From Candidatus Woesearchaeota archaeon (GTDB lineage Archaea > Nanobdellota > Nanobdellia > Woesearchaeales > UBA9989), in NCBI GenBank assembly GCA_013329045.1, contig DUKZ01000038.1, positions 126,294-190,293 of the forward strand: a stretch of 64,000 bases of DNA. The letters are read 5' to 3'. The notes beneath the pieces are model-generated. The model was given only the letters and a program-made list of their open reading frames with translations, had not been told where the DNA came from and did no database searches. Positions 22,201 to 63,512 of the stretch are shown in pieces. Made by a program: the position numbers and the translations under genes. Every line of letters begins with the position of its first letter. Positions within the stretch are counted from its first letter, which is position 1.

Positions 22201-23187
22201 ATGGGCTTATTACAATCATTACAACGGCGTGCGCGGGCAAATCCTCAAAGAATCGTATTTCCAGAGGGTGAAGAAGAGCGTATCCTCAAAGTTGCAGAAA
22301 AATGCGTGAAAACAAAAACAGCTGTTCCGTATCTTCTGGGTGACGAAAAAAAAATTATTCAGTTAAAACGAAAGTATAAGATAACAACAGATTTTGACAT
22401 TATCAATCCCCTAACAAGCCCTCTTCGCCAAAAACTTGCCGACGCATTCTTTGAACTGAGAAAAGAGAAAGGAGTTACTCCTGATGCAGCCCTCTTACAG
22501 ATGAATGATGCGATGTATTTTGGGACACTGCTCACCTACCTTTGCCTTGCTGATGGCGTTGTCTCTGGCTGTGTCCATACCACTGCAGATACGGTGAGGC
22601 CTGCATTGCAGATCATCAAAACCCGAGAACCATTTCATAAGGTCTCCGGGCTGTTTGTTTTGCTCTGGAAAAAGAAAGTATATTTTTTTGCAGACTGTGC
22701 GGTGATCATCGAACCAACACCAGAGGAGCTAGCTGACATCGCCTTGGACACTGCACATAATGCCCGGTGGCTTGGCATCACCCCCCGTGTTGTTTTCCTC
22801 TCTTTTTCTACCCATGATAACTATAACACTCCCCATCACCAAAATATCAAGAAAGCATTAGAGCTAGTCAAGACAAGGGATCCCAAGCTACTTGTTGATG
22901 GAGAAATGCAGCTTGATGCTGCCATTGTCCCAGAAGTTGGAAGGGTCAAATGCCCCAACAGTCCAATAAAAGGAGATGCGAATGTGCTCATCTTTCCAAA
23001 CCTCGAGTCGGCAAATATTGGATATAAACTTGTGGAGCGCTTTGGAAAAGCCATCGCTATTGGGCCAATCCTCCAGGGGCTCAGAAAGCCAGTCAATGAT
23101 GTTTCCAGGGGGTCTACTGTCGAGGATATCTTTGATACAACAATACTCACTTGCATCGAGGCCCAACAATGCTCATCCTTACACTAA
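22201..23187 (+). CDS. pta: phosphate acetyltransferase (PTA_PTB domain only)
   Basis: 328 aa. Motifs: IVFPEGEEERIL, DGVVSG, FADCAV, VVFLSFSTH, ANVLIFPNLESANIGYKL. Confidence 0.88.
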   Translation: MGLLQSLQRRARANPQRIVFPEGEEERILKVAEKCVKTKTAVPYLLGDEKKIIQLKRKYKITTDFDIINPLTSPLRQKLADAFFELRKEKGVTPDAALLQMNDAMYFGTLLTYLCLADGVVSGCVHTTADTVRPALQIIKTREPFHKVSGLFVLLWKKKVYFFADCAVIIEPTPEELADIALDTAHNARWLGITPRVVFLSFSTHDNYNTPHHQNIKKALELVKTRDPKLLVDGEMQLDAAIVPEVGRVKCPNSPIKGDANVLIFPNLESANIGYKLVERFGKAIAIGPILQGLRKPVNDVSRGSTVEDIFDTTILTCIEAQQCSSLH

Positions 23188-24266
23188 ACTGCGGGAGTTC
23201 TTCTATCAAATTTGCAGTGTATCAAAGTAAAGGTCAAAAGCAACTCACGACGGGTTATCAGGAGAATATTCTCTCTATCACCTCTTATCGTTCTTCTCTT
23301 AAACAGATCATCAATGAAACATCGCCTGATGCTATTGGGCATCGCGTCGTCCATGGCGGAATGCTCACCACCTCTTCTCTCATCACACCTTTTGTGATGA
23401 ACGAAATTAAAAGATATTCACACTATGCCCCCCTCCACAATCCTCCGGAGCTGCTTGGCATCACCATATGCAAAAAACACTTTGGTCATCTCCCACAAGT
23501 GGCAGTGTTTGATACAGCATACCATACAACAATCCCTTCCCCCGTTCGTACGTATGGGATCCCATATAAATATACAAAAAAAGGATATATGAAATATGGC
23601 TTCCATGGGACAAGCCATCATTACTGTGCAACGGAAGCTGCAAAGCTCCTTGGCAAGCCACTCTCTTCATGCAATCTTATCACCTGCCACCTTGGGAACG
23701 GATCATCTGTTTGCGCCATAAAAGGCGGAAAATCAGTTGATACCTCCATGGGGATGACCCCTCTTGATGGCGTCCTGATGGGGACGAGGTGCGGGATGCT
23801 TGATCCTGGCATCGTCCTAGCATTCCTCGAACAAGAAAAACTCTCTGTGAAACAGGTTGACCATCTTCTTAATCATTCGTCAGGCATGAAAGGGGTGTCT
23901 GGGATATCCCATGATTATCGGGCGTTGAAATACAACAAGCATCCGCGAGCCAAGCTCGTCCGTGAGATGCTTGCAATCAGCCTGCAAAAGATTATCGCAA
24001 GCTACCTTCCCGCCCTCCAGCGGGTTGATGCTATCATCTTTACCGCGGGGATTGGGGAGCATGTCCCAGAACTTCGGAAAGATATTGCTTTGGGGCTGGG
24101 GTTTTTAGGCGTAAAACTTGATGATCGGAAGAATAAGCGCAATGCTCCAATCATCAGCAAGGCAACATCCCCCATCAAGGTTTTTGTCATCAAAACAGAT
24201 GAACAACACCTCATCGCCCATGAAGTAGAAAGAGTCCTCAAACAACATACCGCAAAGAGGCGATAA
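23169..24266 (+). CDS. ackA: acetate kinase
   Basis: LTLNCGSSSIKFAVY, GHRVVHGG, AVFDTAYH, YGFHGTSH, HLGNGSS and FTAGIGE are canonical AckA motifs. At 365 aa the N-terminal lobe is somewhat shortened. Confidence 0.9.
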   Translation: MLILTLNCGSSSIKFAVYQSKGQKQLTTGYQENILSITSYRSSLKQIINETSPDAIGHRVVHGGMLTTSSLITPFVMNEIKRYSHYAPLHNPPELLGITICKKHFGHLPQVAVFDTAYHTTIPSPVRTYGIPYKYTKKGYMKYGFHGTSHHYCATEAAKLLGKPLSSCNLITCHLGNGSSVCAIKGGKSVDTSMGMTPLDGVLMGTRCGMLDPGIVLAFLEQEKLSVKQVDHLLNHSSGMKGVSGISHDYRALKYNKHPRAKLVREMLAISLQKIIASYLPALQRVDAIIFTAGIGEHVPELRKDIALGLGFLGVKLDDRKNKRNAPIISKATSPIKVFVIKTDEQHLIAHEVERVLKQHTAKRR

Positions 24267-25340: not shown

Positions 25341-26531
25341 ATGAGAGGGCGTTCAAAAAGAGGTCAAGGAGCTGGCGCTGGGCAAGCTGCAACATTCATT
25401 GCACTCATCGCTTTCTTCATCGTACTCTATATCCTTTTCCTCCCCCCAGCAGACCGTGAAGCCCTCCTGAATGATGATACCAGCAGCACCTGCACTGGCA
25501 CTTTTTGCACCCATGAAGGAGAAATACTCCTCGAAGAAACCCCTGGGAAGCTCGATACCCTCGGGTTTTCCTCTTTTGAGCACCATATTGCAAGCTTCAC
25601 CATCTTTCAAAAAGAGGATGCAACCGAATTCCTCAAACTTCAAACAATTTCTGTAAAGAGCGACTGGTTCAAGAAAAACAGCGCTAATGCAACATTCTCC
25701 ATCCAAGATCCCACAAAAGTTTCCAGTGCCCTGCTTGCCTTTAGCACTCCCATCCGAAAAGGATTGCTTACGATCCAACTAAATAGAAAAACAATTTTCT
25801 CTGGTGATATTCACACAGAAAATATTGATCCAATCATGCTTCCCCCTGCTCTCCTCAACCAAGAAAATGTCCTTACATTCACCGTAGACAACCCTGGTTT
25901 TGCATTCTGGACGAGCAATGCGTACCGGCTGGAAAATCTCCAAGTCATTGGCACGGTAGTCGACAATACCCGTCAATCTGCCACACAATCATTCTTTATC
26001 ACCCAAAAAGAAAAGGAGAACCTCGAGCGTGTCAATCTCAAACTCTTCCCTGACTGCAATCCCTCTGCCAGCGGGATCCTCACCCTCCACATCAATGATC
26101 GGGCCATCTTCTCAGGCATTCCTGACTGCGGCATCCTTAACCGGTACGAGTTTGACCCTGCAACGCTCACCCCTGGAGAGAACACCTTCTCTGTCAAAGC
26201 TGACACGGGAAGCTATCTCCTCGACCAGATTGTTATTGTCACCGAACTTACCGCACCAGATTACCCCACCTATTACTTCCTCGTTGATCCCGAAGCCTAT
26301 GATGCAATCAGGGCCTTTGGGGTTGATGCAAACCTTGACATAGAATTCGTCGAACAGGAGGACTTGAACTCAATTGTCCTTAACTTAAATGGCGTAAAAA
26401 AACAGGTGAGAACCAGAGATATGTTCGCTTCATTGCTTGTCAATGATTTCATCCTGAAAGGAAACAATTACCTGCAGATTGTCCCGCAAAGCGATGTGAA
26501 CATAGCAAAGGTTCGTCTCACCCTCTCATAA
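25341..26531 (+). CDS. exported repeat protein with class-III (prepilin-like) signal peptide candidate; first gene of the surface operon
   Basis: The N-terminus MRGRSKRGQGAGAGQAATFIALIAFFIVLYILF has a basic head, a KRG/Q motif and a ~22-aa hydrophobic helix. It is followed by three ~100-aa internal repeats (LLTIQLNRKTIFSGD.. / ILTLHINDRAIFSGI.. / IVLNLNGVKKQVRTR..). Confidence 0.75.
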   Translation: MRGRSKRGQGAGAGQAATFIALIAFFIVLYILFLPPADREALLNDDTSSTCTGTFCTHEGEILLEETPGKLDTLGFSSFEHHIASFTIFQKEDATEFLKLQTISVKSDWFKKNSANATFSIQDPTKVSSALLAFSTPIRKGLLTIQLNRKTIFSGDIHTENIDPIMLPPALLNQENVLTFTVDNPGFAFWTSNAYRLENLQVIGTVVDNTRQSATQSFFITQKEKENLERVNLKLFPDCNPSASGILTLHINDRAIFSGIPDCGILNRYEFDPATLTPGENTFSVKADTGSYLLDQIVIVTELTAPDYPTYYFLVDPEAYDAIRAFGVDANLDIEFVEQEDLNSIVLNLNGVKKQVRTRDMFASLLVNDFILKGNNYLQIVPQSDVNIAKVRLTLS

Positions 26532-26558: not shown

Positions 26559-29500
26559 ATGCCCAGTGATGATGAAGTCCTGCGGGAAAAAGTCGATCAG
26601 GATATGGAAGATTTGAAGAAACGTGTTCGCAACGGAGAACGCTCCACTCAAGCTTTTGATGAGGAATCGTTTGCCCGAGAAATCCAGGAGAGCAAAGTAC
26701 GCGAACGAGCAGCCCGCCGGGAGCTGGTAGCAAATGAACAAATCCGGCGAACTAACCTTCAGGCAGCACAGCAAACAACAGGAAAACTTCCTTCACAGCT
26801 AGACAGGTTTGGGCAAGAGGCATTGTCACAAGACCAACGCCTTGCTGCGCAGGAAAGCGGACAAGAAGAAGCTTCTTGGAAACGAGCACAAAACGCTGTT
26901 CGCACCCAGACACAAATGGCTGCTTCTGGAATTCGGCAGATGGGCAGGGCAACTACACAGGCAGGCTTTGCATTTGCGCAAAAAACCGGGGAAGCTGCCC
27001 AACGAACGGGCGCTGCGACAGTACGAGGGGTTGGAACTGTTGGCAGGGCTGTGAGGCAGACACCATCTCGGGCATGGAACGGCGTCATCAAAATAAAGAG
27101 TGCTGTTGGAAATGTTGGCAATTTTGTCAGCCGCCAGATGCAGATGGACAATTTTGCGTATTGGAGCATTCTTCTCCTTTATCTGATTGATCTTGTTTCC
27201 GGCTTCAATTATATGATGAGGATAGTGATCTATATCCCAGCAGCGGCCATAGCCGCTGTTGCGTGGGGTGGAGGGGGTGACCTAAAGAGCACTGCCTCAA
27301 AATATTTTGGGTTCTACCTGCTTGTTGTCCTGCCACCATTCATGAAATTTTTTTCTATAGTCTACTCCCCTGCGACATCCATCTTTATTGATTACTTTGC
27401 TGTCTATGGAAACCTGTTTGTGTATATGGCATTGGTGCGTGCACCAGATCCTGGAAAACTCATCTACAAATTACCAAAGGTCGCTTATTTTACATTCATT
27501 GTGTTCACTCTCATAGGCTCGTCTATCAGCTTTGCGATGTTCTCTTCCGGGTATACCAGTAATATCAATGTGAACCTTGTGATGAAAGGAAGCTGGGATG
27601 CATTCAAGGCAGGATATGAGAACACAAAAATCGCGATTGTCCGGGGGCTTCGTGGCGCAAAAAACATTGTTCCCAACTATCTTGATATCGCGACGAATGG
27701 AGCGTATACTGGCAATGCAGATACGTCGAAGACGAGATATTGGGCTCTTGAGCCATCAGCCACCAGGCTCTTTAATCCTCCAAAAGGACTCAAGCCAAAC
27801 ACGGCCTTCCATGTCATCTCCACGTTCGATGGCTTTCGAGAAGTGCAAATCGAGGGCGAGGTCGTCAGGAAATTCGAGGATCTCTCGAGCAAAACACAGG
27901 TAAATTATGGGTGCAGAGCATATAAACTTCTTGATAAGGAGAGAACTTCCCTTGGTGATGGAACTGTTGATAAATCATCAGATATCCTTTTCAACATGTT
28001 AGGATGGAATTCTGCCGAGCCGGTTTCCAGCGATGTTCGCTGCAGCTTTACAAATGGCCTTTCAGAATCCGGAAAAATTGAGGTATATGCTGGCTTTTCG
28101 TTTGCTGCAGAAGCAGTGCACACCTTTTCCTATATAGACCAAGAAGAAGCATTATCACTCATGAGCACTTCACGGATGACTGGAAATGCGATCTTTGATT
28201 CAAGCACTGCGTCTTCTAGAGAGAACACCATCAAGGGAAAATTGAAAGCATTGGAAGAGAATACCATCACTACCACAACACCTGGGCCTGTGGTCATCGC
28301 AACAGAGTGGCGGACAGCATACCCATTACGCATAGACACAGAAAATCCTTCACAGCTTGATTTGCTCATCAGTATCCACAATACTCATGCATCAGGGCAA
28401 ATAGCCGGACTTTCTGATTTCACTGTTTCCCTTCCCAAAGGATTCACCCTCAGCGAATGCAGCGTTGGGAGGCGGCAGGAAAATGAAGGGACAATGAGCT
28501 TTTCCAAGACTGGAGGGGATGAATTCTATTCTACTTTCACCGCGAATTTTCCAGACACATTGTTTCCTGTGACAACCTCACTTTCCATGTGGTGCCCTGT
28601 CACATATACTACTGAAGTGCTTCGCGGTGGAGCAATCAAAGAAAGACAAGAACTTAGGCTTGCGACAAATTATAATTATGAAGTCGTGGATAAATATGAT
28701 ATTGTTGTTGCAAAATTGCCCGCGCTCAATACTGGCGGTTCCGGGGGCTTTGGCGGGGGGGCGTGCAGCGCGGCTGCTCACTGCAGCGGGTATAATGAAG
28801 AGTCATTGAAGAATGGAGTGTTTGCTGGATGCGCCCGCGACCACCAAGATATTTTCAAACGAGAGATGCAAGATCAAGGACTCGGGCTTGATCTAGTGAC
28901 CGTGTATGCGTTTGCCTATACAGAAAGCTCTTGCAACCCTGATGTCAATGATGGGGGGATACTCCAAGTAGACCAAGCATGCCTTTATGAAAAAAAATGC
29001 AGCGCTGTTGAAGACCAGATTCATTATGGCATCCAAGAACTCAAGGAGAAATATGAAGCAGCACGGGCTCTTGGCGTGTCAGATGATGATGCAGCAACAC
29101 TCATGTTTTTTGGCTATAATCGAGGGGTTGGTGCGATGAGAAAAGCTGCGGAATTCCTCAAGGCTGACCCGTCAGCCGGCATCCAGGATGCAATGGTGAA
29201 AGGATGCAAGGCATATTTTCCAAACCCTTCCATCTCTGGTGTGTGCGGGAGCGATGGGGAGAGATGCTGCAATTCCCCTGGCCTTGGAGCTGGCTATCCT
29301 GAGCGAGTGAAGAGCTTCATGCAGCAGGGATGCCAGCAGGCAGGGGGAAGCATTGCGTTGGCCGGTGGGACATGCAACAGCGCCGAAGGGAATTCTCCTA
29401 CAGGGGGATTTGGACAGACTGTTGATATGTCTGATTATATCTCACGGGAGCAAGTGAATATTGTTTCTACAAGGTACAAGCAGCGATCTGGCACTGTCGA

Positions 29501-29930
29501 CATGATCGTGATGCATCATACAGCAGGACGAACAGTTAAAGATGCGCTTTTGTCCTGGGTAAACAGGAAAGCTAGTGCACACTATATTGTTGATAAGGAT
29601 GGCACTATAGTGACAGTCATACCTGAGAATCAAGCAGCATGGCACGCCACATGCGTCAATGGTCATTCTATTGGGATCGAGATTGTGAACCTTGGGGAAG
29701 GCAATGATCCATATCCTCCCGCGCAAGTTCAAGCGGTCGATTCTCTCGTCAAATATCTTGCAGACAAATACCATATCCAAGATGGCAACATCATCGGGCA
29801 TGGGTGTGTCACCTCAAATAAGATGGCAAGTGAGCCAACAGACCTTCCCCGAGACCTTGGGAACGGGTTAAAATTATATACTCGCGAAAGCAATGCACCA
29901 TATCCATGCACCTTCCTTGGGTGTTCATAA
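26559..29930 (+). CDS. giant multi-pass membrane protein with two-module beta-rich ectodomain, SLT lytic transglycosylase domain and Amidase_2 (N-acetylmuramoyl-L-alanine amidase) domain
   Basis: 1123 aa. From N to C: a Q/A/R-rich cytoplasmic N-terminus; hydrophobic helices at ~27150-27560; SLT motifs AYTESSCNP..GGILQVDQ..FFGYNRGVG (Glu codon 28923-28925); and Amidase_2 motifs VDMIVMHHTAG..SAHYIVDKDGTIV..AWHA..NGHSIGIEIVN..IIGHG..EPTD (~29490-29860). Confidence 0.88.
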   Translation: MPSDDEVLREKVDQDMEDLKKRVRNGERSTQAFDEESFAREIQESKVRERAARRELVANEQIRRTNLQAAQQTTGKLPSQLDRFGQEALSQDQRLAAQESGQEEASWKRAQNAVRTQTQMAASGIRQMGRATTQAGFAFAQKTGEAAQRTGAATVRGVGTVGRAVRQTPSRAWNGVIKIKSAVGNVGNFVSRQMQMDNFAYWSILLLYLIDLVSGFNYMMRIVIYIPAAAIAAVAWGGGGDLKSTASKYFGFYLLVVLPPFMKFFSIVYSPATSIFIDYFAVYGNLFVYMALVRAPDPGKLIYKLPKVAYFTFIVFTLIGSSISFAMFSSGYTSNINVNLVMKGSWDAFKAGYENTKIAIVRGLRGAKNIVPNYLDIATNGAYTGNADTSKTRYWALEPSATRLFNPPKGLKPNTAFHVISTFDGFREVQIEGEVVRKFEDLSSKTQVNYGCRAYKLLDKERTSLGDGTVDKSSDILFNMLGWNSAEPVSSDVRCSFTNGLSESGKIEVYAGFSFAAEAVHTFSYIDQEEALSLMSTSRMTGNAIFDSSTASSRENTIKGKLKALEENTITTTTPGPVVIATEWRTAYPLRIDTENPSQLDLLISIHNTHASGQIAGLSDFTVSLPKGFTLSECSVGRRQENEGTMSFSKTGGDEFYSTFTANFPDTLFPVTTSLSMWCPVTYTTEVLRGGAIKERQELRLATNYNYEVVDKYDIVVAKLPALNTGGSGGFGGGACSAAAHCSGYNEESLKNGVFAGCARDHQDIFKREMQDQGLGLDLVTVYAFAYTESSCNPDVNDGGILQVDQACLYEKKCSAVEDQIHYGIQELKEKYEAARALGVSDDDAATLMFFGYNRGVGAMRKAAEFLKADPSAGIQDAMVKGCKAYFPNPSISGVCGSDGERCCNSPGLGAGYPERVKSFMQQGCQQAGGSIALAGGTCNSAEGNSPTGGFGQTVDMSDYISREQVNIVSTRYKQRSGTVDMIVMHHTAGRTVKDALLSWVNRKASAHYIVDKDGTIVTVIPENQAAWHATCVNGHSIGIEIVNLGEGNDPYPPAQVQAVDSLVKYLADKYHIQDGNIIGHGCVTSNKMASEPTDLPRDLGNGLKLYTRESNAPYPCTFLGCS
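29224..29254 (+). repeat. 31-nt exact direct repeat, copy 2 (inside the giant hydrolase gene, Cys-rich linker between SLT and amidase domains)
   Basis: Same 31-mer. It encodes ..NPSISGVCGSD.. Confidence 0.9.
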
Positions 29931-30988
29931 TGAAAAAAACATCACAAATATTCCATATTGCTTTTCTCTGCACCATCCTTCTTTTCCTTTCAGCTTGCAA
30001 TAAAGGAAGCTCCATCAAAGACTTCAATTTCCAGCAAGGCACGAAAGGGGTGAGCATGAGCACAATCAAAAATGCGCCTCCCCGAGAAATCATAGAAAAA
30101 GTGCAATTTAAGGTAGGCATCGAGCTGCACAATGAAGGAGCATATGATATCAAAGATGGCGAAGGATACTACCGAATTGTGCTTGATAAAGATCTCAACT
30201 GGTTTACCCAGCCACCTTATCAAACACTCCAGCCAGACAATCAAGGCATGGCAGCACCAGTCCTTGTAGACTTTTCCCTTAGAGGCAGGCAGGCAGCGCT
30301 TCCTCCAGGGGAGATTAGAGCCACGTTTGTTGATGTTGTGTCCAAGGAAGTTACTGGAGGACGAAAAGTTGATTCGAAAATCCGGGTAAACGGGTGCTAT
30401 TATTATGAGACAAAAGCGTTTACTGATATCTGTGTCAATCCTAATATTTATCAAGTCGGAAAGACGGACTATGTGTGTGAAACAAAACCGGTGAGCCTCT
30501 CTGGCGGTCAGGGCGGGCCGATCGATGTGACAAAAGTTGAGCCGACTATAATACCACTACAAAACGGCAATTATAAAATTAGGTTCAAGATTACTGCCCA
30601 TAATAGGGGAAAAGGAACTGCTTATAAGCCTACCACCAGCGGAGGGGTAACCGAAATTAGATCCGCATGTGTTGGAGAAAAACTTGGAGACCGATGGAAC
30701 AAAATAAAACTCTATGCAAAACTCTCTGAAGTACAGCTCAACTGCGCATTTGAGACACAAAACACCGGTGACTTTGCGAATACTGAAGGGGTTGGAATAC
30801 TCTTCAACAATGACCTTGAAGCGGTGTGCGAAACCCCTGAGATGACAGAAAAAACCCCTTATTTTACCCCCCTCTATGTCCATATGCAGTATGGGTATAC
30901 CTTTGATGAGGCTATCACCATCTCCATCGTCAACCAAAATTATGAATATGAACAAGCGCATCAGAAAGAAGGAAGTTCAGGACAGTAA
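29930..30988 (+). CDS. lipobox surface protein, paralog 1 (twin CARDB-like modules, Cys-rich)
   Basis: The signal peptide ends in the lipobox LFLSAC. Family motifs: FQQGTKG, VGIELHNEG, NGCYYYETKAFTDICVNP, VCETKPVSLSGGQGGPIDV, FKITAHNRGKG, MQYGYT. ATG 29930 overlaps the upstream stop (TAATG). Confidence 0.85.
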   Translation: MKKTSQIFHIAFLCTILLFLSACNKGSSIKDFNFQQGTKGVSMSTIKNAPPREIIEKVQFKVGIELHNEGAYDIKDGEGYYRIVLDKDLNWFTQPPYQTLQPDNQGMAAPVLVDFSLRGRQAALPPGEIRATFVDVVSKEVTGGRKVDSKIRVNGCYYYETKAFTDICVNPNIYQVGKTDYVCETKPVSLSGGQGGPIDVTKVEPTIIPLQNGNYKIRFKITAHNRGKGTAYKPTTSGGVTEIRSACVGEKLGDRWNKIKLYAKLSEVQLNCAFETQNTGDFANTEGVGILFNNDLEAVCETPEMTEKTPYFTPLYVHMQYGYTFDEAITISIVNQNYEYEQAHQKEGSSGQ

Positions 30989-31045
30989 TTGCGCTGTTTA
31001 AATAGAAAACATTATAAACACAATTTGCCAGGAAGACATGCAATA

Positions 31046-32089
31046 ATGGAAAAAAAGAGACATCTTATAAGGGTTCTTGTCCTGCTAATAGTATTCTTGC
31101 TTGTCGGCTGCAAAGGGAAGAAGCAAGAAGATTCAGGACCGTCTGCCACCATCAGCGGCAGTGATGGCATCAGCATGTCTTTCATGAAGATCGTGAGCGA
31201 TAAGGTCTATAGCAATGCGCAGATGCGGGTTGGCGTCGAAGTAGAGAATGAAGGGACTTGTGACATGGGGCGCTATGCTGATGGGACGTATGATTGTGTC
31301 GGACACATCAAGATGCTCGGTCTTGATCCTACTATCTTTCACATCCCCGATTGGGATAATGGGGGACGAGTGGCAACTCAGGTAGAACTTGGGCGAAGCG
31401 TCTTTTTGCCCGGGAAGAGCAATAATATCCCCACAGGAGGAAAAGAGATCATCACGTATCCTGGCATTACCGTCCAGCTGAATCCAGAATCTGCAGGGCA
31501 CAAAACGAATCTTGCCCTCCATGCCTGCTATCTCTATAAAACCAGAGCCACCATTCCTGTCTGCATTGATCCCCTAGCATATGGCGATTTCCTTGGAGAA
31601 AAAGTATGCGATGTCAAGCCAATCACCCTCAAGGACCAGGGAGCCCCTGTTGCCGTCGTTAAAGTTGATCCTGAAGTATTCCTTGGCAGCGGGAACCAAT
31701 ACCAGATGCAATTTCGCATCTACTTCAAGAATGTTGGCCCAGGCATGCTGTTCCAGGCGGACCGTGATGGAGCTGAAAATGAAAACCTTGAAGCATGCCC
31801 TGCAATTGACTATGATTACCAGAATAAAGTTAAAGTTGACAGAATCGTCCTTGGCTCGGTTGTCAATCCTGAACTTAGCATCCCTCTTATCTGCCAACCT
31901 GGGATTAGTGACCAGATAACCCTCTATGACAATCAAGGGCTTATCATCTGCCAAACAAACGGCGATCTTGGGCAAGATACCTATCAAACGACATTATTTG
32001 TCGAATTATCCTATGGTTACACCCAATCAATCAAGAAGCAAATAACTGTCGTTAATACTCCAACACTCCAGAGGGCAAACCTGAACTAA
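31046..32089 (+). CDS. lipobox surface protein, paralog 2
   Basis: Lipobox FLLVGC. Family motifs: VGVEVENEG, HACYLYKTRATIPVCIDP, VCDVKPITLKDQGAPVAVV, FRIYFKNVGPG, LSYGYT. Confidence 0.85.
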   Translation: MEKKRHLIRVLVLLIVFLLVGCKGKKQEDSGPSATISGSDGISMSFMKIVSDKVYSNAQMRVGVEVENEGTCDMGRYADGTYDCVGHIKMLGLDPTIFHIPDWDNGGRVATQVELGRSVFLPGKSNNIPTGGKEIITYPGITVQLNPESAGHKTNLALHACYLYKTRATIPVCIDPLAYGDFLGEKVCDVKPITLKDQGAPVAVVKVDPEVFLGSGNQYQMQFRIYFKNVGPGMLFQADRDGAENENLEACPAIDYDYQNKVKVDRIVLGSVVNPELSIPLICQPGISDQITLYDNQGLIICQTNGDLGQDTYQTTLFVELSYGYTQSIKKQITVVNTPTLQRANLN

Positions 32090-32090
32090 A

Positions 32091-33437
32091 ATGGAATCAG
32101 ACAAAAAAATATCAAAAACATCAAAAATATTCACTGCACTCCTTTTAGTATTCCTGCTTTTCCTGGCTGGATGCGGGGGAGGAGCTGCCAAAAAGACTCC
32201 TGAAGGGGGCTCTGACTTTCGCCGGGGGACTCAGGGTCTTGAGCTAGACTTTGTCCGGGGAACGCCCCCAGAAAAAATCATCGCTATCCCCTCCAATAAT
32301 CCACAATACAACTGGTTTACAAATATGTTTGGAGAAGGAGGGTTCTCTATTAATGTAGAAGTGATCAATAAAGGCGCTGAGAGCACCCCTCCAGTATTCT
32401 CTGAAGATGCCGATACGCTTTTTCCTAGTTATTTTCTTGGGACATATGGCTATTCCAGCCTTGGCGGCCTTGTCAACTATGATGCTGCATATTCTGCGTA
32501 CCCAGAACTCCATTCCATTTTTCCTCCACCAAATATCCATCTCTCAGGGTTTGACCAGTCAATCGTGCAGACGACAAATAGCATCGGGACGAGCGCTACG
32601 TATGGGTATGTGAACACCCCGGACTGGCTTCGCACCATGGAATGCGCATTCTTCTATGGAAGCATTGTCCAGTGCGTTGGCGGCGGCGGAGGGGCGCTTG
32701 GAGCACAATCAGGGCTCTATCCACAAATCAATACCATCGTTCCAATGCTTGGGACAGAAGAGACACGAGGAAGAGTGGGAATCAGAGACATCGTGAGCTT
32801 TACTGTTAACAATATTGCCATCTCCTCTGATATTGATAAGTATCCTGTCCGCTGGAAGGCCACCGCCTGCTATTACTATAAGACGGTTGCTTCACCTACC
32901 ATCTGCGTTGATCCAGACCAGTACTCTGTCGATGAGAAAGTATGCAAGGTGCAAGAGCATCAAGCCGTTTCTGGGGGCCAGGGAGCCCCTGTGGCAGTCA
33001 TTGGGGTTGACCAACAAATGAGCTATAACCGTGCATATTTTAAAATTACCATAAAAAATGTTGGCAGGGGAAAAGTATATGACCCCACAAACATTGATAT
33101 CCATTCCCGATGCATCATCGACAAGCTTCGTCCAGGCGATGTGAACAAGGTGTTCTATGATGTTGCTCTTGGCTCGTTCAACCAGAATTATGCCACTGGT
33201 GCCAGGAACATCAGATGCGACACAAATCCTCTCTTCCCCTATCCTTATTCTGGCGTTGCATACCTTGACCCTGATACTGGTGAGGGAGAAATCTTCTGCA
33301 CTCTTGAACTCACCGACTTCCAGGCCCACATTGGTTCCTCGACCTCAGCATTTTCATCTCCCCTTGCCATCCAACTCATCTATGGATATACAGAGTCAGA
33401 CTATGCTGATACAGAGATCATAACCCAGCCACGATAG
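32091..33437 (+). CDS. lipobox surface protein, paralog 3
   Basis: Lipobox LFLAGC. Family motifs: FRRGTQG, INVEVINKG, TACYYYKTVASPTICVDP, VCKVQEHQAVSGGQGAPVAVI, FKITIKNVGRG, LIYGYT. Confidence 0.85.
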   Translation: MESDKKISKTSKIFTALLLVFLLFLAGCGGGAAKKTPEGGSDFRRGTQGLELDFVRGTPPEKIIAIPSNNPQYNWFTNMFGEGGFSINVEVINKGAESTPPVFSEDADTLFPSYFLGTYGYSSLGGLVNYDAAYSAYPELHSIFPPPNIHLSGFDQSIVQTTNSIGTSATYGYVNTPDWLRTMECAFFYGSIVQCVGGGGGALGAQSGLYPQINTIVPMLGTEETRGRVGIRDIVSFTVNNIAISSDIDKYPVRWKATACYYYKTVASPTICVDPDQYSVDEKVCKVQEHQAVSGGQGAPVAVIGVDQQMSYNRAYFKITIKNVGRGKVYDPTNIDIHSRCIIDKLRPGDVNKVFYDVALGSFNQNYATGARNIRCDTNPLFPYPYSGVAYLDPDTGEGEIFCTLELTDFQAHIGSSTSAFSSPLAIQLIYGYTESDYADTEIITQPR

Positions 33438-33512
33438 AGACACGATAGCGCCCCATAATCAAAAACTTTAAATAACTGAAATCTGATGTTCAGAGAATAA
33501 AAGGAGGATACC

Positions 33513-34712
33513 ATGAAAAAGATCACTATTTTTCTCGTAGCAGTATTGCTTGTTCTCAGCGCCTGTGGCTCTTCGAAAGAGAATAGCGCCAGACCTGATG
33601 CAACAGAACCATTCATTGGAGGCAACGATGCCCTCAAATTTGGCTTTGCACAGGGAACACCACCAGACTTTGTCTTTGACAATAACCAGAACCCTTTTGC
33701 CATCGTAAACCAGATCGAGAACCTTGGCGAAGCAGACGTTCCTGCCAATAATCTTGTCATCAAGGTTGTCGGCGTCAATCCTATGGACTTTGGTATCGAT
33801 ACTGAAGCAGACCGGGCTGCCTATCGCTATCCTGGCCTTGACCCTAATGCGCTAGACATTGTTGATGCAAATAGGCAGTTTATCACTGGCGCCAGAAAAA
33901 ATTTTGATGGCACACAACTGCCAGGAGACAAGGACTATGTCGAATTCCCTGATCTTGTGTACCTGCCAGACCTCAATGGGAATACTGGGGTTATCATCCG
34001 GGCAGAGGCATGCTATAACTATATGACAAAAACATCAACACTCCTTTGCATCAAGAAAGACCTGCTTGCCGATTCAAACAGCGAAATTCGTGTCTGCAAA
34101 CTTTCAGAGGAAAAAGACGCAAAGAATTCCGGCGGCCCTGTCCAGGTCACTGCACTCAAACAAGTGCCCCAGGGAAGGAACAAAATCCAAGTCACTTTCA
34201 TGGTAGAACATGTTGGCCATAAGTCTGCCCGGCTCTATGAGATCGAACCAGCATATGCCGAAGGATATGAACACAGCGTCTCTACCGGCATTGACTTTAA
34301 AGGAGTTCCCATCAATGCACCAATCATCCAACAAAACACAGGACTTCCACCCGAGAGCTCATGCCTTGATGACGTGACAAACAGGAGAATGAACCGGGTG
34401 CTCATCGATGTGACATCGCTCCATAGCGGTCAGCCAGTCATCTGTTCTGGCTTTGATGCGACAGGCGTTGGAGGGGAGGCAATCCCAGCACCTCTTGGCG
34501 GCGTTCGGCAGGTTGGCAAATCACGAGGATATGTGACACTCTGGAAAGATGCCCAGGGAGGAACACTCCAACCAAGAGCAATCACGTGCACGATTGATAC
34601 GACAAACATCGGGCCTGATGAGGTATATGAAGAACTCCTGACCATGGATCTTTATTACACCTACCAGCAGAGCATCGAGAAACCGATGGAAATCAGAGAT
34701 GTGAAGACGTAA
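33513..34712 (+). CDS. lipobox surface protein, paralog 4 (most divergent)
   Basis: AGGAGG RBS. Lipobox LVLSAC. Family motifs: FAQGTPP, VNQIENLG, EACYNYMTKTSTLLCIKK, VCKLSEEKDAKNSGGPVQV, FMVEHVGH, LYYTYQ. Confidence 0.85.
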   Translation: MKKITIFLVAVLLVLSACGSSKENSARPDATEPFIGGNDALKFGFAQGTPPDFVFDNNQNPFAIVNQIENLGEADVPANNLVIKVVGVNPMDFGIDTEADRAAYRYPGLDPNALDIVDANRQFITGARKNFDGTQLPGDKDYVEFPDLVYLPDLNGNTGVIIRAEACYNYMTKTSTLLCIKKDLLADSNSEIRVCKLSEEKDAKNSGGPVQVTALKQVPQGRNKIQVTFMVEHVGHKSARLYEIEPAYAEGYEHSVSTGIDFKGVPINAPIIQQNTGLPPESSCLDDVTNRRMNRVLIDVTSLHSGQPVICSGFDATGVGGEAIPAPLGGVRQVGKSRGYVTLWKDAQGGTLQPRAITCTIDTTNIGPDEVYEELLTMDLYYTYQQSIEKPMEIRDVKT

Positions 34713-34760: not shown

Positions 34761-35711
34761 TTATTCCTTCACCACAAAATTTGCCAGCAACGCCTGGACT
34801 TGCAAGAACTCATCACTCCCTTCTGTTATCCTAAACTCAATCTCGCCGCATTTGTCGATGAGATGGACTTTTCTTCTCTCCGGGATATCAAGATCCCAAA
34901 TGACTCGCTCAATTTGCTTGACAACATCAAGGCCGGAAAGGCCGTACTTGAGCATAACATCGAGAAGAGCTGATCTTGCCTCGAGGAATTTTCCCTGCAT
35001 GGCAAGAGAAAGAGCTTCGCCAATTTCCTTTGGCCTGGCAACAGCAGCAATCGAGTAAATGTCGTTCTCATCAATATTCTTCTTTAAAGCAGCGCAGGAC
35101 TGAAGGATATTTTCCATCTTCCTGCAGTCTCCCTCACTGACGATGAATAAGGCTTCTTTTGCCTGCCTATCTGCGCTGAGCCCCTCTTTTGCGATGATCT
35201 CATCTAGTATCTCAAATATCTCAGACTTTTCCAGCGGCTTGAAGCGAAAAACAGCGCATCTGCTCTGAATCGGATCTATGATCTTGGAAGAATAATTACA
35301 AGAGAGCACAAAACGAGTTGTCTGGGTGTAGTTCTCCATCGTCCTCCTGAGAGCTTGCTGGGCTTCTCTTGTCAAGGCGTCACATTCATCCAGAAAGATA
35401 ATCTTGAAAGGGACATTCTCCATCGCCCTTGTTCTCGCAAAATCCTTTACCTTATTCCTGATCACATCAATGCCGCGCTCATCTGACGCGTTGAGCTCAA
35501 GAAAACTCTGGTGCCAAATCTCCCCATAGAGCTGCTTTGCGATGACTAACGCCAGAGATGACTTTCCAACGCCAGCTGGCCCTGCAAAGAGGACATGAGG
35601 CATATTCTTTTCCCGGACAAAAGCCTTGCAGCGCTTGACGATCTCCTTTTGACCCTTTATCCCGCTAAAATCAACAGGACGATACTTTTCCGTCCAGATC
35701 GTGCTCGCCAT
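34761..35711 (-). CDS. rfcS: replication factor C small subunit
   Basis: WTEKYRP, GPAGVGKS (Walker A), FLDECD, SRC motif (IQSRCAVFRF). Confidence 0.93.
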   Translation of the reverse strand: MASTIWTEKYRPVDFSGIKGQKEIVKRCKAFVREKNMPHVLFAGPAGVGKSSLALVIAKQLYGEIWHQSFLELNASDERGIDVIRNKVKDFARTRAMENVPFKIIFLDECDALTREAQQALRRTMENYTQTTRFVLSCNYSSKIIDPIQSRCAVFRFKPLEKSEIFEILDEIIAKEGLSADRQAKEALFIVSEGDCRKMENILQSCAALKKNIDENDIYSIAAVARPKEIGEALSLAMQGKFLEARSALLDVMLKYGLSGLDVVKQIERVIWDLDIPERRKVHLIDKCGEIEFRITEGSDEFLQVQALLANFVVKE

Positions 35712-50630: not shown

Positions 50631-51977
50631 CTAAGCATTCTCTTGCTTTGGTGTTTGCGTTGTTGTGCCCCTGGATGAACTCTTAGTCTTTCCCGGCTTC
50701 TTTTGCTTTCCAGCTTTCCTTAGGGTGTAGTGGACAGGATTCTTTATCTTTGCACAGAGGTTGTCTGGCTTGCACACACCAATGTCAATATAATACATCT
50801 GATTGTCGCAGTTTGGGGGGAGCATGGATTTCTTGTTTTGTTTATGATACCTAATCTGGCCTAAAAGAATTGTTTCTCTCAATGGTTCTGGGTTCTTCTT
50901 GTTCCATTCCAGCAACCGCTGCTCTATCATATCATAACTCCAGCCAATACTCTGGAGGAAGTTGACGAGGGCGAAGACTGCGCGTTTTTTACCGTCATTG
51001 ATGCCCTTGAAGATGAGGTGCATGCAGGGGGGAAATGCCTCTTCTGGGAGAGCTACTTCCGGGATGATGAACTCTTTTTGCTCATTCTTTTCTTTTGTCT
51101 CTTCGAGCTTTGCTGTTGCGTCGAGTGCCTGAATGATGAGTGAGCGTGCTTCTTCACTCCTTGCCTGCTGCTTGTCTAAAAAGCGGTGGTTTGGAACAAC
51201 GATATTTTCCGGATTTGCCAAACCCTTGTCAAAATCCATAACCTGCTCTAGGAGGATTGGGAGTGATGCCAAGCCTGATTTCTCGTGCAGGGAGTAAGGC
51301 ATCCGAAAAAGATGGCGCTGGGAGATGAGGATCGTGTCAATACCTACTATCTTATAAGGGTCAAATGCGTTGTTGATGATAAACTCTTTTGGGTTCATGC
51401 CGCTTTTTTTTGCTATTGTTTCGATGTTGTCTGTCTTCAGGATAGCCTTGCTGAGATGAGACCTTGTCATTTCTTGGAGATATGCGGCTATTGCTCTTGG
51501 TGCATCGGGAAACAATGATTCGATTGGTTGATTGTTGATGGTCTTTGGAAATGATTCAAACGGCACACCGATATGAAAGCCTTTGTTGCCGGAGAATTTT
51601 ATCGAAACAGCCTGGATGCCATGGTACTTCAATGCCTGAATGAGCATGACCGCTGATAATTTTGTGTAGTCCCACACATTACAGTCAATGTCTATTATCA
51701 GGTCCCATCCAATCCGGAGCTCTTCAACCTCCCTTTTGTTCATCGAGGTGGTGAGGGAAAGGGGATTGTCCCAGTGCTCTTCTGATGCATGAAAACTCGT
51801 TGCGCCTTTCTTTACAAACTCAAGAATTTCTGCCTCATAGTTGAGGATGTCTGGCCTCTTGCCAAAACCTTTCTCTCCATATTTGACAGCAATTTCCCTG
51901 CCCTTTGCGTTCTCAGCCATCTCCTTTTGGATGTCCTGGCGCTTATAGTATTTCAATAGGGTGCTGATATGGATCAT
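50631..51977 (-). CDS. priS: DNA primase: PriS catalytic subunit fused to a PriL-type C-terminal Fe-S domain
   Basis: AEP motifs WDLIIDIDCN, FSGNKGFHIGVPF and RMPYSLHEKSG. A C-terminal ~130 aa carries FPPCMHLIF...FALVNFLQSIGWSYDMIEQRL...PPNC..GVC..NLC (four Cys). Confidence 0.85.
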   Translation of the reverse strand: MIHISTLLKYYKRQDIQKEMAENAKGREIAVKYGEKGFGKRPDILNYEAEILEFVKKGATSFHASEEHWDNPLSLTTSMNKREVEELRIGWDLIIDIDCNVWDYTKLSAVMLIQALKYHGIQAVSIKFSGNKGFHIGVPFESFPKTINNQPIESLFPDAPRAIAAYLQEMTRSHLSKAILKTDNIETIAKKSGMNPKEFIINNAFDPYKIVGIDTILISQRHLFRMPYSLHEKSGLASLPILLEQVMDFDKGLANPENIVVPNHRFLDKQQARSEEARSLIIQALDATAKLEETKEKNEQKEFIIPEVALPEEAFPPCMHLIFKGINDGKKRAVFALVNFLQSIGWSYDMIEQRLLEWNKKNPEPLRETILLGQIRYHKQNKKSMLPPNCDNQMYYIDIGVCKPDNLCAKIKNPVHYTLRKAGKQKKPGKTKSSSRGTTTQTPKQENA

Positions 51978-60641: not shown

Positions 60642-60713
60642 GATCTCTCTTCTCTTGTCACCTTTTTGATCCGATGCAATACTTATTTAAATGTGCTCCT
60701 TCCTGCCCCCCCT

Positions 60714-63512
60714 ATGGGGGAAGAAAACGAAGAATCATTAGACCTTTCGGGAATAAAAGATATCGGAAAACGCCTCAAGAAGGCAGCGCCGCTCCTCCTT
60801 CCACTCCTCCTCCTTCTCATCCCCCTTGCCATCACGATCCATGTGCGCTTGCAGCCACAAGATCTTGTCCCCCTTGACAGGCAGGCAGAATCCAGCATCA
60901 TGAATTATGTCAAGATGCAGGCAACTGCTCAGGTAGATAAAGAGTATCCAAACATTCCTGCAGAGAGAAAAACAGACCTGATCAACAAGAAAACACAGGA
61001 GATTATCTCTCAAAATGAAGCTGCCATCCATCAACAAATAGACCTTGGAGCAGCATCGCTAAAATCACGGCTCCAATACGAATCAGGTTCACATACCTAT
61101 GCCTATCTTGGGGATATTGATTCTTATTACTGGCTTCGCATGGCGCGAAACATTGTCGAAACAGGAAACCAGTGCGACCAGGTCATCAATGATCGGTGCT
61201 ATGATACATATACCCTTGCCCCAACTCTCAAGCCAAAGGCATATGATTATTATCCTATCATCATTGTGTGGAACTACAAATTCCTCCATCTCTTCAACCC
61301 TGACATGACACTCATGCAGGCATCATTTCTCACCCCTCTTATCTTGTCTCTCCTCTTTACCATCCCTCTCTTCCTCCTTCTCTACAAGATCAGTGGCCCT
61401 ATTGCAGCAGTCATTGGAACTGTGCTTGTGAATGTGAACGTGAATTTTCTTGCCAGAAGCCTTGGATCGGATAATGACATCGTGAATGTCTTCTTTCAAG
61501 TGCTCTTCCTCTGGATCGCTGTCGAATGCTTCTATGCCAAGGACCAAAAAGCAAAATACATCTGGGCAGGCCTAGCTGGCGCGTGCCTTTCCTTCTACGC
61601 AAAATTCTGGACAGGGTGGTGGTACCTTGCCGACCTGTTCATCCTCTCCATTGCTGTTGGCATGGCCTATATCATCCTCCAGCAACTCTTCATGAAAAAA
61701 GAGCTCTCTGAGATCAAGAAGCAAATCATCACCTTCCTCCTGACAGGGCTTATCTTCATGCTCGCTATCTTTGTCCTGTATGGACTTATATTTACCACCC
61801 CAAAAGGCTTCATCCACGTGTTTCTTGCCCAGCTTCAGGTACTCCACTTCAAATCAGCAGCAAATGCCGACTACTGGCCAAATGTCCTGCCTACAGTTGC
61901 AGAATTCAATGGCATGAGCCTTCCAGATGTCCTCTCAAACAATGGGGCTATCCTGCACATACCAGTATTCCTCATCGCTTCCCTTGGTATGCTCCTCCTC
62001 ATTTTCCCCACCATTAGACTCATCAAGAAATATTTCTGGCAGCTCCTAGGACTTGTCCTCTTTGACATCCTTCTTTATCGCCTCCTTACCACCTCTCAGC
62101 GGGGGATACTCATCTTTTCCCTCCTCATTCCAGTCATTTATGGGATCTCACTTCATCTCAAGAAAAAAGAAGAGGAATTCCATCCGGAGGGAATATTCAT
62201 CCTTGCCATGATCGTGTGCCTTGTTACCTATTTCAGCATGGTGGGCGTGCGTTTCCTCTTCCTCATGGCTGTGCCCCTGGCAATCTTCATTGCCATCTTC
62301 TTTGACCGGCTTATCACCATTCTCCATGCGTCTTTGCTCAAACCCTTTAAACCAACAGCGCTTGTCTCTGGCCTTTTTATCGGATTCTTGGTGTTTCTCA
62401 TTCTTATCCAACCTGTTCGCGGCGGGATTTCCATCGCCCAAAACTACGTGCCAAACATCAATGATGAATGGGTGGCAACGCTCGAAAACATCAAGGACCA
62501 TTCCGAACCGGATGCCATTATCAATTCCTGGTGGGACTATGGCCATTGGTTCAAGTATTGGGCCAACCGACGGGTGAGCCTTGATGGAAGCTCTCAAAAC
62601 AATCCCCCGCTTCATTGGCTTGGCAAACTCCTCCTCACCAAGGATGAGGATGAGGCAAGGGGCATTTTGAGAATGCTTGATTGCGGGAGCAATGGAGGAT
62701 TTGAACATATCAACAAGCGCATCAATGATACTCCCCACTCCATAAACATCATCAATGAACTCATCCTCAAAAACGAAAGCGCTGCCATGGAACTTCTCAC
62801 TTCCCATGAATTCACTGCTAGTGAGATTACCTCAATCCTTAATACGACTCATTGCGACCCTCCAGAAAATTACCTGATCACCTCCCAGGACATGATCGGC
62901 AAGGGGGCTGTATGGGCGCATTTTGGGAACTGGGATTTTAGGAAAGCATACCTTGCAGCAAATGTAAAAATAGTGAGCGAAGAAGAGCTTGTTGCCAGAT
63001 TTGCGGATGTTTATGATGTGCCGGCAGAAACAACACGTGCATGGATCAAGGAAGTATCGACGAAAAAGGATGAGGGGTCACTCAATGCATGGATCTCACC
63101 CTGGCCAGGATACCTGTCTGGAATGGTTGCGTGCAAAGAACAAAACAACATCACCTTATGCCCGTTTTCCCAAGAAGGAAACGTTGTATTGGTAACAGTT
63201 GACTTTCCTGCTCAAGAAGTAACTGTTGCTCTGCCAGATGGGAGCATCAAACATCCCCTTGCAGCCAGCTTCATCACCCAAGAAGCCGCCATACATCGGA
63301 CATTTGAAACAGACACTCTCCCGCTTGGGGCAACATTCCTCCAGCTCGATGAAGGGGTCTTTGTGGTCTTTACCTCTCCAGAACTGGCCGGAAGCATGTT
63401 CACGAGGCTGTTCTTTTTTGATGGAACGGGAATAAAAGATTTCCAGAAAGTTTATGATACCACCAGTGTGTTCGGGGAAAAAATCACTACCTGGAAAGTC
63501 GCTTGGTCTTAG
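60714..63512 (+). CDS. aglB: oligosaccharyltransferase AglB (STT3 homolog)
   Basis: 13-TM-type N-terminal half and the diagnostic WWDYGHW motif (INSWWDYGHWFKYW). Start at ATG 60714. Confidence 0.9.
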   Translation: MGEENEESLDLSGIKDIGKRLKKAAPLLLPLLLLLIPLAITIHVRLQPQDLVPLDRQAESSIMNYVKMQATAQVDKEYPNIPAERKTDLINKKTQEIISQNEAAIHQQIDLGAASLKSRLQYESGSHTYAYLGDIDSYYWLRMARNIVETGNQCDQVINDRCYDTYTLAPTLKPKAYDYYPIIIVWNYKFLHLFNPDMTLMQASFLTPLILSLLFTIPLFLLLYKISGPIAAVIGTVLVNVNVNFLARSLGSDNDIVNVFFQVLFLWIAVECFYAKDQKAKYIWAGLAGACLSFYAKFWTGWWYLADLFILSIAVGMAYIILQQLFMKKELSEIKKQIITFLLTGLIFMLAIFVLYGLIFTTPKGFIHVFLAQLQVLHFKSAANADYWPNVLPTVAEFNGMSLPDVLSNNGAILHIPVFLIASLGMLLLIFPTIRLIKKYFWQLLGLVLFDILLYRLLTTSQRGILIFSLLIPVIYGISLHLKKKEEEFHPEGIFILAMIVCLVTYFSMVGVRFLFLMAVPLAIFIAIFFDRLITILHASLLKPFKPTALVSGLFIGFLVFLILIQPVRGGISIAQNYVPNINDEWVATLENIKDHSEPDAIINSWWDYGHWFKYWANRRVSLDGSSQNNPPLHWLGKLLLTKDEDEARGILRMLDCGSNGGFEHINKRINDTPHSINIINELILKNESAAMELLTSHEFTASEITSILNTTHCDPPENYLITSQDMIGKGAVWAHFGNWDFRKAYLAANVKIVSEEELVARFADVYDVPAETTRAWIKEVSTKKDEGSLNAWISPWPGYLSGMVACKEQNNITLCPFSQEGNVVLVTVDFPAQEVTVALPDGSIKHPLAASFITQEAAIHRTFETDTLPLGATFLQLDEGVFVVFTSPELAGSMFTRLFFFDGTGIKDFQKVYDTTSVFGEKITTWKVAWS

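Follow-up and report, generated by a model that had tools for sequence, protein, structure and literature searches.

Woesearchaeota and related lineages count among the uncultured archaea with the widest distribution, and the chief sign in their genomes that some members of this group live on bacteria is the presence of large murein hydrolases. These hydrolases are the closest described systems to the locus studied here, a gene cluster within a window of 64,000 nucleotides (the whole stretch of DNA analysed) from a Candidatus Woesearchaeota archaeon, in which four lipoprotein genes, par1 to par4, follow a gene for a hydrolase-bearing membrane protein, G, and a gene for an anchored jelly-roll protein, A. 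In the passages that treat them, large murein hydrolases of Woese- and Pacearchaeota are proposed to act on bacterial hosts (PMC8204110, PMC9723730, PMC12352652); the family of Castelle et al. 2021 is fam00969 (PMC8204110), such proteins are treated also by Vigneron et al. 2022 (PMC9723730), and the co-distributed families of 'module 98', 51 in number, are listed in the relevant passages of these two papers as being of unknown function. G belongs with the fam00969-type proteins, as a large archaeal protein with peptidoglycan-degrading domains and a proposed action on bacterial cell walls. The corresponding passages of PMC8204110 and PMC9723730 describe the hydrolase alone, and the membrane module, the hydrolase-free half of the family and the operon reported below are not described there; passages of both papers retrieved by keyword do not mention lipoproteins, and the term 'gene cluster' is absent from the one paper checked for it. 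Our literature searches found no description of the operon.

A second line of background concerns archaeal lipoproteins. Their lipidation enzymes, AliA and AliB, were identified in 2025. AliA occurs in DPANN archaea, in which lipoproteins are common according to predictions, and the majority of archaeal lipoproteins serve transporters as binding proteins (PMC12462473).

An earlier sequence-only reading of the window had described the four proteins as an unrecognised, disulfide-stabilised family of surface adaptors or adhesins that diversified in tandem and might offer alternative target-binding subunits to the hydrolase. Our analysis leads to a different explanation, to which we give a probability of roughly 0.45: the four genes would encode lipid-anchored subunits of a conserved, lineage-specific DPANN (Woesearchaeota/Nanoarchaeota-type) envelope platform, made of A, G and three lipoprotein subfamilies (A-G-L1-L2-L3) and acting at bacterial cell walls.

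Four lipoproteins in an operon of fixed gene order

To place the window in context, we examined metagenome contigs carrying homologues, which have a matching neighbourhood, and 80 loci taken from genomes of GTDB species; the 80 loci were found through a sub-alignment sharing QGAPVAV and are thus biased toward members with that motif. The open reading frames (ORFs) of the loci were scanned with hidden Markov models (HMMs) for the lipoproteins (L), for A and for the N-terminal ~720 residues of G. This revealed the fixed operon A-G-L1-L2-L3 in about 57 of 88 fetched stretches, all of Woesearchaeota/Nanoarchaeota origin. Wherever a locus has enough flank, A lies upstream of G and A-G-L-L-L runs on a single strand, the number of L genes rising to four or five at some loci, and the window itself, reading A396-G1123-L-L-L-L, has the order that defines the family. 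Taxonomically, the 80 loci are all MAGs (metagenome-assembled genomes) of Woesearchaeota, Nanoarchaeota or Nanoarchaeia, some of them TPA bins labelled 'Methanosarcinales'.

The order of the L genes proved to carry information. Position HMMs were built separately for L genes 1, 2 and 3 of 47 loci that have three such genes. Of 141 members, which are the training sequences themselves, 140 scored best on the HMM of their own position, by median margins of more than 100 bits; in independent loci with four or five L genes, the order was L1-L2-L3-L3 or L1-L2-L2-L3. By these profile comparisons, L1, L2 and L3 are three ancient subfamilies kept in a fixed order, which fits non-redundant subunits held together rather than alternatives diversifying in tandem. 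In the window, par1 scored 243 bits against L1, 163 against L2 and 114 against L3; par3 scored 218 against L2, 173 against L1 and 103 against L3; and par4 scored 243 against L3, 108 against L2 and 92 against L1, so that on profile scores par1 is L1, par3 is L2 and par4 is L3. The assignment of par2 is ambiguous between L1 and L2 because its two scores are nearly equal (222 and 218 bits, with 118 for L3); its closest relative within the window is par1, at 90 bits. One-to-one orthologues of par4 in other clusters match it at 171, 119 and 56 bits.

All four ORFs delimited by the sequence-only reading stand, as co-directional genes each with a lipobox (Table 1). Antisense ORFs across the four-gene region are short and unsupported, and the par1 and par2 products are identical in public gene calls on identical contigs. 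Every motif on the earlier list aligns in all four proteins, namely GTxG, PP, an xVxVxNxG strand, ACYxYxT...C(I/V)D, VC...QG(A/G)PV, a second N-x-G-x-G strand and a terminal YGYT. Mutual identity is 22-30%, and each protein scores 218-243 bits against subfamily HMMs made from other genomes, with par1 reaching E = 1.5e-97 against the family profile; judged by these scores, the similarity is far above chance.

The genes of the operon are tightly coupled: the start of par1 overlaps the stop of G (TAATG), and a gap of 1 nt separates par2 from par3. TATA-like boxes lie upstream of gene A (TTTATATATATA), par2 and par4, the par2 box being TTTAAATA at ~43 nt upstream, while par4 has its own AAGGAGG and a TTTAAATA upstream and a poly-T tract downstream.

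Protein G and its optional hydrolase

G begins with a charged cytoplasmic N-terminus, continues through about 4-5 transmembrane (TM) helices (residues ~218-331, from hydropathy) that carry conserved motifs, and then forms a beta-rich ectodomain (~385-722) that ends in a conserved YxY strand and a Gly linker. In the window this is followed by a lysozyme/SLT-like region (~761-856) and an Amidase_2 domain (978-1082). The amidase matches Pfam well above the cut-off (E=6.9e-30, 104.5 bits against a cut-off of 26), and the Lysozyme_like match is sub-threshold (E=0.064, 13.2 bits against 25) with a visible ES...GILQVDQ motif. The N-terminal module is conserved in 72 ORFs. What follows the YxY strand is polymorphic: in 67 G proteins the C-terminal extension ranges from 0 to 434 aa (amino acids), is at most 16 aa long in 35 and has 47-434 extra residues in the others. 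The extensions include SLT, GH73 glucosaminidase, muramidase PF11860, Amidase_2, fn3 or unassigned Cys-rich modules, a variability seen in the homologues of loci L004, L006, L010, L013, L026, L028, L029, L064 and others. About half of the G proteins thus have no hydrolase.

This polymorphism bears directly on the idea that the L proteins diversify in tandem as adhesins or adaptors, each able to replace another and to direct the hydrolase to a different target. The linkage of the four lipoproteins to the giant hydrolase gene holds up, the genes being adjacent and co-oriented, and fast evolution, a variable loop in each domain, the extra copy par2 and the 4-5 copies at other loci all agree with such a role. 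Against this stand the three order-fixed subfamilies of apparently ancient origin, each genome keeping one of each, with L1-L2-L3 retained over the 47 training loci and the independent ones; changes in copy number that are occasional single duplications and not arrays; and the presence of the same trio in the 35 of 67 clusters whose G lacks a hydrolase extension. We consequently regard the adaptor model as very unlikely and find no support for tandem diversification into alternative target-binding subunits of the hydrolase. Given the fixed order, and given that a hydrolase is missing from about half of the G proteins, we see the L proteins as obligate parts of a complex and not as alternative hydrolase adaptors; and since the core persists without a hydrolase, they are not accessories of the enzyme, which would, if anything, be an accessory of the platform.

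The ectodomain of G may itself be related to the L proteins. Searching with hhalign, we obtained no match between the L profile and the single giant G protein. A profile of 67 G ectodomains aligned to the L profile over 163-250 colinear columns, motif for motif through the terminal YxY strand (P = 7e-4 in the local and 4e-5 in the global alignment), and control comparisons gave P >= 0.03. The proposed membership of residues ~440-740 of G in the L family is therefore weakly supported at the level of the 67-sequence profile and finds no match with single-sequence targets; together the profile comparisons give weak but specific support to an L-like ectodomain.

A large lipoprotein family with an ordinary fold

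We next asked how far the L family extends. A word-indexed search returned only 11 relatives, all hypothetical proteins of Woesearchaeota, and an exhaustive HMMER search returned 3,614 representatives at E<=1e-3 and 1,808 at E<=1e-30, a representative being a cluster at 50% identity. The family is thus large yet unnamed. No Pfam or NCBIfam model matches it, whether single proteins or profiles are used, and PDB sequence searches with L proteins and L profiles found no relative, the only matches being to signal peptides at E>=0.29. On all these counts the family is as unrecognised as the sequence-only reading had supposed.

Conservation within the family centres on cysteines. In an alignment of 136 sequences, C23, C156, C168, C183, C247, C272 and C300 are invariant (par1 numbering), as are N68, G70, G127, P197 and Y321, and all seven Cys are kept in 342 of 376 L homologues; the Cys and Gly motifs thus persisted as homologues were added. 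The exceptions are informative, as C156 and C247 are lost jointly in 25 of the 376 sequences, which comprise both L1-type and L3-type proteins, while C156 is never lost singly and C247 was lost singly once. This joint loss points to a C156-C247 disulfide and, with that pair set aside, C168-C183 and C272-C300 are probably the remaining ones. The disulfide stabilisation proposed earlier gains support from this co-loss in two subfamilies.

One of the seven cysteines, C23 in par1, is that of the lipobox. By a strict pattern, 214 of 243 locus ORFs carry a lipobox-like motif, most of the others having variant boxes, where a lipobox was taken to be a positive n-region and a hydrophobic h-region ending in [LVI][ASTVI][GAS]C. 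All four window proteins fit this signal peptidase II-type (SPII-type) pattern, with K/R-rich n-regions followed by a hydrophobic stretch and the boxes listed in Table 1, so the L proteins are predicted to be lipidated on the lipobox Cys. The remark in the sequence-only reading that the archaeal lipidation machinery is not defined is now outdated by the identification of AliA and AliB in 2025 (PMC12462473).

The AlphaFold2 model of par1, computed from the 136-sequence alignment, is of high confidence (predicted local distance difference test, pLDDT, 90.4; predicted TM-score, pTM, 0.84) and shows a signal helix and two beta-sandwich domains, each ending in a long strand pair, plus a C-terminal helix specific to par1. 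It bears out the twin beta-sandwich layout that had been read from the sequence. Foldseek against PDB returned integrin alpha legs, complement MG domains and bacterial adhesins only, all with TM<=0.25 and root-mean-square deviations (rmsd) above 20 A, and Foldseek against BFVD returned nothing specific. As modelled, the L proteins have a fold of an ordinary class, and no characterised family corresponds to theirs. The suggested likeness to CARDB fared unevenly: a resemblance exists, in that 5 of 136 family members match at sub-threshold level (best E = 0.0059), and an actual match does not, since CARDB (PF07705) gave none at E<=1 with any of the four window proteins.

Variation concentrates in two insertion hot spots, one loop per L domain, which coincide with dips in pLDDT. 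Near par1 residue 107, 23% of members carry an insert of at least 8 aa, the maximum being 134 aa, and the second hot spot lies near residue 289; par3 has an insertion of ~100 aa in the variable loop of domain 1, the first of these sites. Independently of the loops, some L1/L2-type lipoproteins carry an extra Cys-rich C-terminal tail, which brings them to 15-17 Cys overall and has no Pfam match (locus L001, 6119-7393; L004, 10001-11179; L006, 10001-11326; proteins P0002, P0009 and P0011); L proteins can therefore acquire add-on modules too. A solute-binding role in an ABC transporter was considered and rejected, as the L model is all-beta and the operon has no ABC genes.

The proteins of the operon evolve fast. 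Median pairwise identity is 34% for A, 20% for G and 29-34% for L1-L3, compared with 67% for the neighbouring RFC, as is usual for surface-exposed proteins. Archaeal S-layer proteins are typically chains of immunoglobulin-like (Ig-like) or beta-sandwich domains with a TM or lipid anchor. We therefore considered that L, A and the G ectodomain might form an S-layer or general envelope lattice, fixed to the cell by lipid and by the membrane domain of G, onto which hydrolases were added opportunistically as onto an abundant scaffold. The domain type and membrane anchoring of L are compatible with this, the proteins evolve at the pace of envelope proteins, and the operon behaves as a core gene set among housekeeping genes whose core is kept without a hydrolase. 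Known S-layers have one or two components, however, whereas this operon has at least five order-fixed subunits, including a polytopic protein with a long cytoplasmic N-terminus; one MAG holds two complete clusters (L067, L071); and the capacity to form a lattice is not readable from sequence. On balance we consider an S-layer unlikely.

Protein A, an anchored jelly-roll protein

The first gene of the operon encodes a protein with an N-terminal membrane helix, a linker and tandem galactose-binding-like jelly-roll domains. Its homologues, 196 at E<=1e-10, are all hypothetical proteins of Woesearchaeota/Nanoarchaeota, none with a Pfam domain. The AlphaFold2 model (pLDDT 90.7) shows a short N-terminal helix followed by PP and a disordered linker, and the N-terminal family consensus is KKGQ..A..AA.LI..I..LIILYILFLPP, residues 1-45 of the window protein reading SKRGQGAGAGQAATFIALIAFFIVLYILFLPP; this N-terminus resembles the class III (type IV pilin-like) signal peptides of archaea. 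Foldseek retrieved GH35 C-terminal domains, BcsB, reelin and PNGase F with probability 1.0 and TM<=0.24. A showed no relation to the other components, since hhalign of the L profile against A found nothing and comparisons of A with the L and G profiles stayed at control level.

The resemblance to BcsB invites another explanation by analogy, in which the complex would serve uptake or exchange of lipids, cell-wall fragments or metabolites from a partner cell, with G as membrane conduit and with L and A binding or guiding the cargo outside the cytoplasm. DPANN depend on partners for many building blocks, as the relevant passages of PMC8204110 also state, and it is to transporters, as binding proteins, that most archaeal lipoproteins belong (PMC12462473); conserved motifs mark the 4-5 TM helices of G, and A resembles BcsB and other glycan-binding jelly rolls. 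Against an exchange machine, the operon contains no ATPase, permease family or other energising component, the TM region of G matches no transporter family in Pfam, and the L fold is all-beta, not that of a periplasmic binding protein. An exchange function thus appears distinctly improbable.

A candidate platform at the bacterial wall

We return to the envelope platform as the preferred explanation and set out how it might work. The L proteins would be exported by Sec and would receive their lipid on the invariant lipobox Cys, presumably from an AliA-type enzyme, and each would fold into two beta-sandwiches stapled by the inter-domain disulfide C156-C247 and two further disulfides. The non-redundant L1, L2 and L3 would most likely assemble around the L-like G ectodomain, together with A, into a surface platform that is heteromeric and of fixed composition. 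G carries a swappable C-terminal peptidoglycan hydrolase in about half of the lineages, lysozyme/SLT-like plus amidase in the window; the platform would hold the archaeon against the bacterial cell wall and position the lytic domains there, and contacts specific to each lineage would come from the variable loop present in each L domain. Given how often G bears peptidoglycan hydrolases, the platform is best read as a structure for contact with bacterial walls, those of a host or of prey.

Several points weigh against this explanation. Half of the G proteins lack a hydrolase, so the function of the A-G-L3 core is not peptidoglycan degradation itself, and G could be no more to the hydrolase than a handy attachment to the membrane. 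For homology between G and L the signal is weak, with an hhalign probability of 26-42%. The modelled L fold is generic, and its Foldseek matches are uninformative on function. Finally, we know of no cultured woesearchaeon with a confirmed bacterial host.

A bolder version holds that A-G-L1-L2-L3 is a hitherto undescribed contact organelle that defines the lineage of Woesearchaeales-type DPANN archaea, heteromeric and anchored by lipids and TM helices, and that it docks archaea on bacteria and breaches the wall through the swappable hydrolase heads of G. We consider this version tentative and somewhat unlikely, and mention it for its consequence: if true, it would be the first molecular apparatus for episymbiosis or predation of an archaeon on a bacterium.

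Other consequences follow from the operon as it stands. The envelope module is conserved, with five components in fixed order and defined subunit families, and the hydrolase is a head that it may or may not carry; the A-G-L1-L2-L3 module offers a concrete, testable candidate for a contact apparatus. Annotation models could be made for three new protein families, namely A, the N-terminal module of G, and L (comprising three subfamilies), and the L set provides Sec-type archaeal lipoproteins outside haloarchaea that are suited to testing the newly found AliA pathway. The locus should accordingly be framed no longer as a case of adhesins diversifying in tandem but as a conserved, undescribed envelope module with three ancient subunits and one additional copy.

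Genomic neighbourhood

The features of the window are collected in Table 1.

Table 1. Operon genes and neighbouring features of the 64,000-nucleotide window (positions are those of the window).
Feature	Length (aa)	Position	Strand	Description
Phosphate acetyltransferase and acetate kinase		22201-24266	+	PTA_PTB match, E=2e-112; acetate kinase match, E=2.4e-114
A	396	25341..26531	+	Anchored tandem jelly-roll protein, first operon gene
G	1123	26559..29930	+	Membrane module, ectodomain and hydrolase C-terminus
par1	352	29930..30988	+	Subfamily L1 lipoprotein (by profile); lipobox LSAC, Cys23
par2	347	31046..32089	+	Extra copy, L1/L2 clade (by profile); lipobox LVGC, Cys22
par3	448	32091..33437	+	Subfamily L2 lipoprotein (by profile); lipobox LAGC, Cys28
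par4	399	33513..34712	+	Subfamily L3 lipoprotein (by profile; FIGGNDG / SGxPV variant); lipobox LSAC, Cys18; final operon gene
RFC small subunit		34761..35711	-	Convergent; syntenic boundary marker, outside the system
Primase	447	50631-51977	-	Single ORF matching PF01896 (small) and PF04104 (large) DNA primase subunits
STT3/AglB homologue	948	60666-63512	+	Oligosaccharyltransferase homologue (PF02516, PF21436)

The RFC gene shares a fetched stretch with the cluster in 70 of 88 sources and appears in the gene tables downstream on the opposite strand. A mobile-element or viral origin of the cluster was rejected in view of its housekeeping synteny (Pelota, RFC, aminoacyl-tRNA synthetases, proteasome ATPase); no integrase or capsid genes were found at the cluster, and the window contains no tRNA gene or Rfam RNA.

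Some observations on other clusters stand apart from this. The MAG with two complete A-G-L-L-L clusters is Zod_Metabat.833 (L067 on JAFGRO010000006.1 and L071 on JAFGRO010000005.1), where one cluster has a long A of 560 aa and the other an A of ~400 aa. A long A is found in clusters of L001, L006 and L035 as well, suggesting that there are two types of cluster, both ancient. The operon and its synteny are further found under 'uncultured Methanosarcinales archaeon' titles of TPA/binchicken MAGs (L008, L009, L013, L014 and many others); these labels are probably placeholders or wrong, because operon and synteny are specific to Woesearchaeota/Nanoarchaeota.

Within the window, a bacterial-type Pta-AckA pair lies just upstream of Pelota and the operon and is next to the cluster in L004 too. 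The primase ORF looks like a fused PriS-PriL. The STT3/AglB homologue makes N-glycosylation of the operon's surface proteins possible.

Comparison with known systems

As a kind of thing, archaeal beta-sandwich surface lipoproteins are already known; the L family itself is an uncharacterised one, whose function we infer. With CARDB and other Ig-like tandem domains it has in common the alternating hydrophobic strand ending in N-x-G and the two-sandwich layout, whereas its Cys pattern and its ACYxYxT and QGAPV motifs are particular to it. Its N-termini show the n-region, h-region and invariant-Cys lipobox of the AliA/AliB-dependent lipoproteins of Haloferax volcanii (PMC12462473). Unlike the characterised archaeal lipoproteins, which are mostly solute-binding, the L proteins are predicted to be all-beta twin sandwiches, with six conserved Cys in the mature protein.

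A is, like BcsB, a single-anchor protein with tandem jelly rolls of carbohydrate-binding type, encoded beside a polytopic membrane partner. It differs from BcsB in that it has no flavodoxin-like domains and is anchored at its N-terminus rather than its C-terminus, and the two superpose with a TM-score <=0.24; the A-G-L operon contains no glycosyltransferase. G recalls the architecture of bacterial polymorphic toxins, keeping one N-terminal module while its C-terminus is swappable or absent. No secretion ATPase, immunity gene or cleavage/release motif was seen, and the variable domains of G are cell-wall hydrolases that stay tethered to a polytopic membrane protein.

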